From a virus (taxonomy: Duplodnaviria > Heunggongvirae > Uroviricota > Caudoviricetes), in the IMG/VR virus record IMGVR_UViG_2690316086_000006: a DNA stretch of 17,334 nt; one strand, given 5' to 3'. The stretch's first letter is position 1. Every line of letters begins with the position of its first letter. A program made the translations under genes and the position numbers. This document shows positions 5,638 to 6,725 of this stretch, one piece after another. A model generated the notes under the pieces. That model was not told the origin of the DNA and made no database searches. It was given only the letters and a program-made list of their open reading frames with translations.

Positions 5638-5910
5638 TTACCTCCAGATGCGTTGCTGGAATGTGCGGGACGGACGCGGCGGGCGTTCGGAATAAAGGAG
5701 CCTGACGTAGATTATCCAGTGACGGTAGTCGAGGCTAAGGGCTTTCTTAAACTCATACCCACGTCTGCGGTAGTTATGAATCAGCCATTCGGCCTGTTCT
5801 TCAGTGCAGGGATCGTGCTGATACCAGTCATATTTGAATGTGTGAGAACACCGCCCTTGCCTGCTGGCAGGGGCGATATCAGAATTGTGATGTTTGGTAT
5901 TGTGCGCCAT
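5638..5910 (-). CDS. Hypothetical protein (about 90 aa, start taken at internal ATG)
   Basis: ORF with stop 1 nt before the DUF968 start; the track start at 5964 is TTG, the ATG at 5910 has a weak Shine-Dalgarno. Confidence 0.35.
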   Translation of the reverse strand: MAHNTKHHNSDIAPASRQGRCSHTFKYDWYQHDPCTEEQAEWLIHNYRRRGYEFKKALSLDYRHWIIYVRLLYSERPPRPSRTFQQRIWR

Positions 5911-5979
5911 CGGTTTTCTCTGCTGGCGCAGCAGGTGCCAGTTGTTCAAGCTGGCGTGCGGCAATATTGTCTCTGATTT

Positions 5980-6010
5980 CTGTTGTCGTCAACAGGCAAC
6001 GTGCTATCAT
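5980..6010 (+). promoter_or_regulatory. Putative parDE promoter with palindromic operator
   Basis: Perfect inverted repeat CTGTTG-tcgt-CAACAG (5980-5995) overlapping candidate -35 TTGTCG, 16-nt spacer, -10 TATCAT (6005-6010). Confidence 0.35.
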
Positions 6011-6045
6011 CGAATGGTGTTCTATCCTACTCCGTGAGGTTTACC

Positions 6046-6303
6046 ATGCGTACAACCCAACAATTCAGCATTACATTAACTAACGAAATGGCTGACATGG
6101 TGCGCGCCCGTGTGGCTTCCGGTGCCTATGCTTCAGAAAGCGAGGTCATTCGTGAAGGGCTTCGCGCACTGAATGAGCGCGATAAAGCAATCGAAGCGTG
6201 GTTAACGCATTCAGCCGCCCCCTCTCTTGATTCTATCCGCGAAAATCCAAACAACGGACGCTCCATTTCACAGGTTCGCGCCGCGATTCGATCCGGGAAG
6301 TAA
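6046..6303 (+). CDS. parD: ParD-family antitoxin (ribbon-helix-helix)
   Basis: ATG at 6046 with GTGAGG Shine-Dalgarno; MRTTQQFSITLTNEMADMVRARVASGAYASESEVIREGLRAL is typical of ParD; stop 5 nt before the toxin start. Confidence 0.75.
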   Translation: MRTTQQFSITLTNEMADMVRARVASGAYASESEVIREGLRALNERDKAIEAWLTHSAAPSLDSIRENPNNGRSISQVRAAIRSGK

Positions 6304-6308
6304 TCTGC

Positions 6309-6608
6309 ATGACATATGAAGTCATCATTACTCCTGAGGCCGAACAACAAATAATCAACCTGCACAGGTATATAACGGAGAAAGCAGGGAACGTCATTGC
6401 TGACAATTATGCCAATGCGCTTCTTGATTATCTTGATGGGTTTTCTACATTCCCGCATCGGGGCAATAAACGCGATGATATTCGCCAGGGGATGCGGGTA
6501 ACTCATTTCCGCCACAGAACGATTATTGCTTTTGCCGTTGATAGCAGAAAAGTCTTTATTGTCGGTATCTATCATGGTGGGCAAAGTTATGAAACCGATT
6601 TCTTATAA
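6309..6608 (+). CDS. parE: ParE/RelE-superfamily toxin
   Basis: 99 aa immediately downstream of the antitoxin; fold-typical C-terminus (...FRHRTIIAFAVDSRKVFIVGIYHGGQSYE). Confidence 0.75.
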   Translation: MTYEVIITPEAEQQIINLHRYITEKAGNVIADNYANALLDYLDGFSTFPHRGNKRDDIRQGMRVTHFRHRTIIAFAVDSRKVFIVGIYHGGQSYETDFL

Positions 6609-6690
6609 ACTTTTACCCACATCATTCCGGTGTTAGAATTAACCGTCCGCCCCCTCTCTTACTGGCGGATTCGTAGGCTATATAAATCAA

Positions 6691-6725
6691 AGATCCCGGC
6701 TCATGTTTATGTCGGGATCTTTTTT
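6691..6725. terminator. Bidirectional intrinsic terminator between convergent operons
   Basis: 8-bp stem AGATCCCG/CGGGATCT with T5 on plus and a U-rich tract on minus. Confidence 0.5.

Follow-up and report, generated by a model that had tools for sequence, protein, structure and literature searches.

The stretch of DNA analyzed here, called the window in the following, comprises 17,334 nucleotides (nt) of a Caudoviricetes virus (IMG/VR record IMGVR_UViG_2690316086_000006), and its subject of interest is a gene pair, parD and parE, which is read against the direction of its neighbors. Our analysis makes it probable that this pair forms, together with a promoter/operator region and a terminator of its own, a self-contained type II ParD/ParE toxin–antitoxin (TA) cassette, i.e., a moron, in the nin-like region of a lambdoid prophage. 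The anatomy of the cassette, the family membership of both proteins, the mobility of the unit and the selection acting on its genes are what we observe; the features are collected in Table 1. The pair itself is no discovery since it is already annotated in RefSeq and PHROGs: it is an uncharacterized, ordinary member of a well-known, publicly labeled and very large family, and as a ParDE pair it adds little. What is gained are the precise borders of the cassette, a recurrent slot for addiction and defense modules, and a back-to-back link to the isrK-antirepressor operon in relatives.

A preceding reading of the letters without database searches (the sequence-only reading) had proposed a ParD/ParE pair, and both proteins indeed score above the curated cut-offs of the corresponding hidden Markov models; neither failed in the ParD/ParE profile searches. 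ParD reaches 32.1 bits against PF03693 (cut-off 21) and 53.8 bits against TIGR02606 (cut-off 46.2), with residues 6–51, the N-terminal ribbon-helix-helix, being covered, and it matches phrog_6494 over its full length (E = 1.7e-56). In the Protein Data Bank (PDB) it matches ParD1 (3KXE) along with the N-terminal domains of further ParD proteins. ParE scores 40.4 bits against PF05016 (cut-off 23) across profile positions 1–89 of 89 and matches phrog_5232, also at full length (E = 2.4e-43). PHROGs places both genes in its category toxin/antitoxin moron. The genes are laid out as a type II TA operon with the antitoxin first, both reading in the same direction from a promoter of their own, and with a gap of 5 nt between the stop of parD (6303) and the start of parE (6309). 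The ATG of parD is preceded by GAGG (6036–6039), 6 nt upstream. The adjacent, antitoxin-first arrangement is common to all relatives examined. Against the copy in Escherichia coli O111 the ratio of nonsynonymous to synonymous substitution rates (dN/dS) is 0.06 for parD and 0.09 for parE, and by this measure both genes are under strong purifying selection. The calculation was confined to the O111 copy and distant relatives were excluded, because dS is saturated in comparisons with them.

Since PF05016 and the RefSeq name of the toxin both span the ParE and the RelE branch, we asked which of the two the toxin belongs to. It might, like RelE, cleave mRNA in a ribosome-dependent manner, with a ParD-type antitoxin as its partner, and would then be no gyrase poison; the swapping of partners between toxin and antitoxin families is common. 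A profile of the toxin family built from 17 members, however, matched only ParE chains when searched against PDB (6X0A, 5CEG, 7YCS, and 8C24). An AlphaFold (AF2) model of the toxin (predicted local distance difference test score, pLDDT, 83) was compared with PDB by Foldseek. There were 22 matches at E ≤ 1e-3, occupying ranks 1–22 and all of the ParE type, with template modeling (TM) scores of 0.72–0.81; the top matches were ParE3, PfiT, PrpT, ParE1 (Pseudomonas aeruginosa, Mycobacterium tuberculosis, and Caulobacter) and ParE2 (Vibrio cholerae and E. coli O157). The mRNases YoeB, HigB, RelE, and YafQ do appear further down the list, but only with TM scores of 0.43–0.63. Moreover, hhalign of the toxin profile against E. 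coli RelE gave no profile similarity (probability 0.5%), and the antitoxin is of the ParD/CC2985 type. The fold ranking, the profile matches in PDB, and the negative result with RelE therefore place the toxin, as judged from profiles and the predicted fold, in the ParE branch of the RelE/ParE superfamily, and a RelE-like nuclease is very unlikely. By analogy with this family the toxin would poison gyrase. A profile search at E ≤ 1e-3 recovered 2422 representative clusters of the toxin family; the close subfamily is enterobacterial.

Upstream of parD the sequence-only reading had placed a candidate promoter overlapping a perfect palindrome, and both are present. When relatives are aligned, conservation begins at the palindrome, and the invariant blocks are its core GTCGTCAA, the TGCTA of the extended −10 (6002–6006, identical in 9/9 aligned relatives), and much of the leader. 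Between genera the promoter and the 5′ untranslated region (5′ UTR) are 66–75% identical, which is about the level of coding DNA, synonymous sites being saturated; sequences farther upstream and downstream are at about 50% identity, the random level. The conserved promoter and 5′ UTR together with the invariant blocks thus support the parDE promoter well. Because the core and the −10 are invariant, the palindrome also remains a reasonable candidate for the operator, and assigning this role to the core is plausible. A second operator within the 5′ UTR (GAATaG-TGTT-CTATcC) was considered and rejected, as its symmetry amounts to just 3–5 of 6 positions and varies among relatives.

Several points weigh against our reading. 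First, the palindrome is statistically unexceptional. The window holds 61 perfect inverted repeats of the type 6-n(0–8)-6, and a repeat of this type turns up in 9.6% of shuffled 84-bp intergenic regions. The outer arms of the palindrome vary from genus to genus: in the alignment the arms agree at 6/6 positions in the window and O111, at 5/6 in phage ArgO145, at 4/6 in Salmonella and Enterobacter, at 3/6 in Yersinia, and at 2/6 in Erwinia. The palindrome is thus perfect in the window as had been claimed, but it lies within chance, and its perfect symmetry is specific to the E. coli lineage, with the core alone being conserved. The invariance of this core might reflect its use in a promoter rather than as an operator; in several contexts the core also serves as the −35 of a divergent isrK promoter. 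Second, the identity of the toxin to characterized ParE proteins is low (13–25%), and some ParE-fold toxins, among them PrpT and PfiT which are both Foldseek matches, are described as having roles different from classical killing. Finally, PADLOC gave no match for ParD or ParE at E ≤ 0.01, which is no bar to a role in defense, and we found no publication on this particular ParD/ParE pair.

The double use of the core deserves a closer look. In ArgO145, E. coli O157:H7 6535WT, Yersinia, and Erwinia a strong promoter (TTGACG-17/18-TATATT; 10/12 consensus matches in ArgO145, Yersinia, and Erwinia) is found on the − strand, and its −35 is the reverse complement of the CGTCAA inside the parDE palindrome. 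Exactly 7 nt past its −10 begins the small RNA (sRNA) isrK (Rfam RF01394), which is followed by the C4 antisense RNA (RF01695) and the antirepressor gene. The two isrK hairpins show compensatory changes among E. coli, Yersinia, and Erwinia. A GGTTCGAATCC-like motif upstream of parD in ArgO145-type contexts was also considered as a tRNA remnant, but ARAGORN found no tRNA there and Rfam identifies the sequence as isrK. According to Rfam isrK is absent from the window, where its body is replaced at position 5962 by the leader of the 90-amino-acid (aa) gene; the − strand site of the window looks like a remnant of the isrK promoter known from the other contexts.

From this arrangement one could argue that the palindrome and its core are mainly a shared element of two back-to-back promoters, through which ParD would regulate neighboring phage genes. 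Elsewhere the target would be the isrK-C4-antirepressor operon, and in the window the remnant promoter leading into the 90-aa gene, DUF968, RusA, and the late regulator, so that the state of the TA system would be coupled to prophage induction rather than just to its own autoregulation. The window has retained the −35 plus a weaker −10, and the antirepressor promoters of P22 are controlled by the ribbon-helix-helix repressors Arc and Mnt. In Gifsy-1 it is isrK-anrP, an immI-like arrangement, that initiates induction (PMC4825925). This argument is, however, purely one of position. The core is equally conserved where isrK is missing, and in the window the −10 has decayed to AATATT, with the body of isrK lost. 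As the copies lacking isrK (window, O111, Salmonella, and Enterobacter) keep the core, we take it to be parDE's own and regard a mainly shared element as rather unlikely. If the control were shared, ParD would also repress the isrK-C4-antirepressor operon in Stx2a-type and other prophages as well as the remnant promoter of the window reading towards the late regulator, and the loss of labile ParD under stress would both free ParE and trigger prophage induction. In the relatives on Shiga-toxin phages, the −35 boxes overlapping with those of the isrK/C4-antirepressor operon make a link between antitoxin level and prophage induction testable.

Returning to the self-contained cassette, its other end is formed by a hairpin (6689–6722). 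On the + strand it has a 12-bp stem with a folding free energy of −18.5 kcal/mol (z = −4.7) and is followed by six T; on the − strand it reaches −19.1 kcal/mol (z = −3.7) and is followed by UUUGAUUU. Because the hairpin folds on both strands, each time with a following tract, its earlier description as a bidirectional terminator is reasonable. A simple terminator scan missed it since the loop exceeds 8 nt. The stem is identical in 14/15 IMG/VR copies, with changes confined to the loop and the T run. The region 3′ of parE is unconserved in distant relatives. In the window we noted there a promoter-like site (6612–6639, +; TTTACC-16-TAGAAT with TG extension) directly after the parE stop and, between this site and the terminator, a hairpin of 6–7 bp (at about 6645–6670, +). 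The site could in principle yield an RNA of about 80 nt; Rfam had no RNA match at 5850–6850, even at E ≤ 5.

We then turned to the setting and the borders of the cassette. The 1.6 kb from 5400 to 7000 are 100% identical with a chromosomal lambdoid prophage of E. coli O26:H11 strain 11368, where RefSeq already names both parD and parE, and of many other Shiga-toxin-producing strains. According to RefSeq, the early-right operon runs on the − strand of the window in the order cII-like, YdaT, replication genes, small ead/Ea22-type genes, HNH, 114-aa, 90-aa, DUF968, RusA, DUF1133, a 237-aa helix-turn-helix protein, three tRNAs, and lysis genes, and this gene order makes nin-like region a fair description. 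All flanking genes lie on the − strand, so that parD and parE on the + strand are antisense to the operon, as had been noted before. For comparison we used twelve parDE-less loci with the 90-aa gene (ten E. coli chromosomes, K-12 Qin, and phage 689R5). Their homology to the window ends at 5955–5961 in nine of the twelve and at 5927 in the remaining three, and homology to 689R5 resumes at 6732, directly past the hairpin. Conversely, phage ArgO145 carries parDE coding sequences of 100% identity, and its homology to the window begins at 5963; here parDE adjoins an antirepressor gene near the integrase, i.e., the left context is a different one. In E. coli O111 RM9322 the cassette is about 95% identical and has the same left neighbor, and the DUF551 gene is found at its right. 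Altogether the left neighbor is either the 90-aa gene or the isrK-ant operon and the right one either ORF114/HNH or DUF551, so that at least two different neighbors occur on each side. Given such sharp borders and varied contexts we conclude that 5962–6731 behaves as a mobile moron. With sharp borders at 5961/5962 and 6731/6732, transcription signals of its own, and alternative cargo in homologous prophages, the cassette has the properties of a moron in a variable hotspot. The module start at 5638 given by the sequence-only reading has to be moved accordingly, as it takes in the unrelated 90-aa gene.

Of 5426 complete E. coli genomes, 371 carry the cassette, and in every case it is chromosomal and not plasmid-borne. 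Homologous pairs with a toxin identity of 61–69% occur in prophages of Yersinia, Erwinia, and Salmonella, in all three antisense to the flanking phage genes, and beside insertion sequence (IS) elements in Enterobacter. One relative has been broken up: in O157:H7 6535WT (L009 2584–3562, in an Stx2a-type prophage context) parD is intact (TIGR02606, 53.4 bits), and parE breaks off after about 7 codons, its place being taken by a 90-aa lipoprotein-like open reading frame (ORF) and an orphan HigA (TIGR02607, 87 bits). Possibly the two orphan antitoxins, lying side by side, act as anti-addiction genes.

Such a locus, which retains parD only and stands beside an orphan HigA, raises the question whether the pair is but a decaying passenger without function, either a dead TA system or the mere context of an orphan antitoxin, and about 43 of the 371 cassette-bearing genomes likewise match only part of the cassette. 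In the window, however, both ORFs are undamaged and match the PHROG profiles over their full length, and dN/dS is as low as given above. The promoter, the Shine–Dalgarno sequence, and the terminator are likewise intact and hardly vary among 15 viral contigs, and at least 80% of the cassette is found in 328 genomes. A functionless passenger is thus hardly credible.

To see what else occupies the place of the cassette upstream of the 90-aa gene and DUF968, we sorted the cargo by type both in 14 loci from genomes or phages and in 71 IMG/VR contigs that reach far enough upstream. Among the 14 loci, hokD was found in nine (once as a pseudogene behind RosmerTA, and in some cases with QueH, IS3, rem, or relBE), parDE in two, RosmerTA in two, and an NgoMIV-type restriction-modification (R-M) pair in one. 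The IMG/VR contigs gave hokD in 43 (eight of them also with RosmerTA), parDE in 14, NgoMIV R-M in nine, and none of these in five; these proportions are only indicative because the sample is redundant and biased towards close relatives of the window. Hence 66/71 contigs carry such a module, which bears out and extends the earlier suggestion of a recurrent TA slot. parDE is antisense in 14/14 IMG/VR copies and never occurs together with hokD among the 71 contigs. The two RosmerTA genes were recognized by PADLOC (RmrA, E = 4e-201; RmrT, E = 5e-92) and are labeled in RefSeq merely as helix-turn-helix domain-containing protein and hypothetical protein. In K-12 Qin, relB-relE-hokD sits at the homologous position. 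The sequence-only reading had likened the locus to Qin, and this is correct for the position beside ydfU but not for the orientation, since the Qin genes share the strand of ydfU and are not divergent. Nor does the cassette directly adjoin the DUF968 gene, as had been stated; because the 90-aa gene lies in between, DUF968 is two genes away.

Where the cargo is hok, RosmerTA, or R-M, the prophages share AACCCGCTTCGGCGGGTTTTGTTTTTT, a canonical intrinsic terminator of the − strand lying directly upstream of the 90-aa gene. To be expressed, the 90-aa gene, DUF968, RusA, and the late regulator must therefore rely on antitermination at this site. In the window the AACCCGCTTCGGCGGGTTTTGTTTTTT terminator is missing upstream of the 90-aa gene. 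As the hok-type inserts end in a canonical − strand terminator at the junction, co-directional cargo supplies a terminator, and antisense parDE supplies its own. Both arrangements would stop cargo expressed in the lysogen from reading into the late regulator. The slot is almost always filled with an addiction or defense module (hok, RosmerTA, relBE, parDE, or type II R-M) in lambdoid prophages and is therefore a practical place to seek new cargo in E. coli prophages. This idea parallels the hotspots of P2 and P4 (PMC9122126). The broader proposal that the core exerts shared control over two promoters with ParD repressing beyond parDE, and that the slot is the lambdoid counterpart of the P2/P4 defense hotspots, strikes us as rather unlikely.

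By analogy with the ParDE family, the cassette would work as follows. It would be transcribed in the lysogen from its own promoter, and ParD dimers would bind through the N-terminal ribbon-helix-helix to the GTCGTCAA core or palindrome over the −35 and repress the operon, autorepression being exerted by ParD or by ParD-ParE at the core. The C-terminal half of ParD would wrap and neutralize ParE. Once labile ParD is no longer replenished, as could happen after loss of the prophage or after host transcription has been shut off by an invading phage, free ParE would poison DNA gyrase, and the prophage would be stabilized and/or competing phages would be aborted. The reverse orientation and the hairpin would keep constitutive parDE transcription out of the downstream late-regulator genes. 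During lytic growth antiterminated early transcription would have to cross the cassette antisense and would thereby shut parDE down.

Table 1. Features of the parDE cassette, of its surroundings, and of comparison loci (positions refer to the window unless a locus L is named)
Feature	Position	Strand	Remarks
parDE cassette as mobile unit	5962–6731		770 bp; promoter/operator region, parD, parE, terminator
Promoter-like site, TTGACG-18 nt-AATATT	5963–5992	−	−10 AATATT 5963–5968; back-to-back with parDE promoter
Palindrome CTGTTG-tcgt-CAACAG (CTGTTGTCGTCAACAG), candidate ParD operator	5980–5995		overlaps sigma-70-like promoter
Candidate parDE promoter	5983–6010	+	−35 TTGTCG (5983–5988), 16-nt spacer, extended −10 TGcTATCAT (6002–6010)
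Palindrome core GTCGTCAA	5985–5992		invariant in relatives from five genera
parD, 85-aa ribbon-helix-helix antitoxin	6046–6303	+	RefSeq WP_001260977.1, ParD family antitoxin
parE, 99-aa toxin	6309–6608	+	RefSeq WP_000220601.1, RelE/ParE family toxin
Terminator hairpin and T run	6689–6725		closes parDE transcript; faces incoming − strand early transcript
27-codon hydrophobic ORF, unannotated	6733–6816	−	right border of cassette; read from sequence
114-aa ORF	6813–7157	−	flanking gene
HNH gene	7154–7609	−	two genes from cassette
90-aa gene, PHROG 1212 (function unassigned)	5638–5910	−	conserved left border of variable slot, outside TA module
DUF968 (YdfU-like) gene	4590–5636	−	slot landmark; PF06147 257 bits; 86% identity to K-12 YdfU
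RusA gene	4218–4577	−	flanking gene
Three tRNA genes	2115–2363	−	Rfam, above gathering score; downstream of late-regulator position
STnc100 sRNA	1320–1492	−	Rfam 104.7 bits, above gathering score
Helix-turn-helix partner of HigB family toxin	14170–14529	−	RefSeq only
HigB family toxin	14532–14834	−	RefSeq only
DicF antisense RNA	16102–16153	+	Rfam 75 bits, above gathering score
isrK/C4/antirepressor contexts	L002 4059–4253 (ArgO145); L009 2312–2494; L011 1956–2179; L015 1959–2178		
RosmerTA in slot	L006 2575–4300; L019 2864–4598		RmrA (helix-turn-helix and M78 peptidase domain) and RmrT
AACCCGCTTCGGCGGGTTTTGTTTTTT terminator	L005–L008 and L020–L022 at junction equivalent to window 5961; L003 about 3567–3620	−	

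Among the neighboring genes, the 90-aa gene is widespread, occurring at 6467 places in 3274 of the 5426 complete E. coli genomes. One phage record labels it "toxin to Rem", and we considered whether the gene is related to Rem; it has no detectable similarity to K-12 Rem. At the right border, the ATG of the 27-codon ORF overlaps the stop of the 114-aa gene and the ORF ends 8 nt short of the T run of the cassette. Its counterpart is annotated as a small coding sequence in phage 689R5 and is also kept in O111 RM9322; the ORF has no PHROG match. In PADLOC the HNH gene resembled the PtuB (Septu) and PDC-M01B nuclease models weakly (best E = 3e-8), probably by generic HNH similarity. A second type II TA pair, known from RefSeq annotation only, lies in the same prophage at 14170–14834 on the − strand and adjoins the immunity region.

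Finally, we compared the pair with known systems. Its best matches in sequence and fold are chromosomal ParDE systems of known structure, i.e., Mesorhizobium opportunistum ParDE3 (5CEG, 6X0A), Caulobacter crescentus ParD1-ParE1 (3KXE), M. tuberculosis ParDE1 (8C24), V. cholerae ParDE2 (7R5A), and P. aeruginosa ParDE1 (6XRW). Like these it has the antitoxin first, with an N-terminal ribbon-helix-helix, and a toxin of about 100 aa with the ParE fold. Unlike these it is borne by a phage, its toxin shares just 13–25% identity, and ParD aligns over the N-terminal residues 6–51 only.

Prophage-borne ParE-type systems with stabilizing or regulatory roles are documented (PMC8706911, PMC7264888, PMC12548467). 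With PaaR2-PaaA2-ParE2 from prophages of E. coli O157:H7 (5CW7, 5CZF; Hallez et al. 2010, cited in PMC12548467) the window pair shares a ParE-fold toxin (TM score about 0.8) on a prophage of enterohemorrhagic E. coli. That system, however, has three components, PaaA2 being a small antitoxin that does not bind DNA and PaaR2 a separate regulator, whereas the window pair has two with a ribbon-helix-helix ParD. ParE(SO)-CopA(SO) of the Shewanella prophage CP4So and PfiT-PfiA of the Pseudomonas prophage Pf4 likewise have a ParE-type toxin on a prophage, and PfiT is among the top Foldseek matches of the window ParE. In both systems the antitoxin is an autoregulating DNA-binding protein, and the roles documented for the systems are prophage maintenance or the control of phage production (PMC8706911, PMC7264888, PMC13048266). 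They differ from the window pair in antitoxin family, operator, phage type, and host.

In position the closest counterparts are relB-relE-hokD of Qin and the lambdoid hokD modules, which use the same slot upstream of the 90-aa gene or rem and of ydfU (DUF968). Their toxins, a type I membrane peptide and an mRNase, are unrelated to ParE. These modules follow the direction of the phage operon and are closed by a strong intrinsic terminator on the − strand, whereas parDE is inserted antisense and brings its own terminator.

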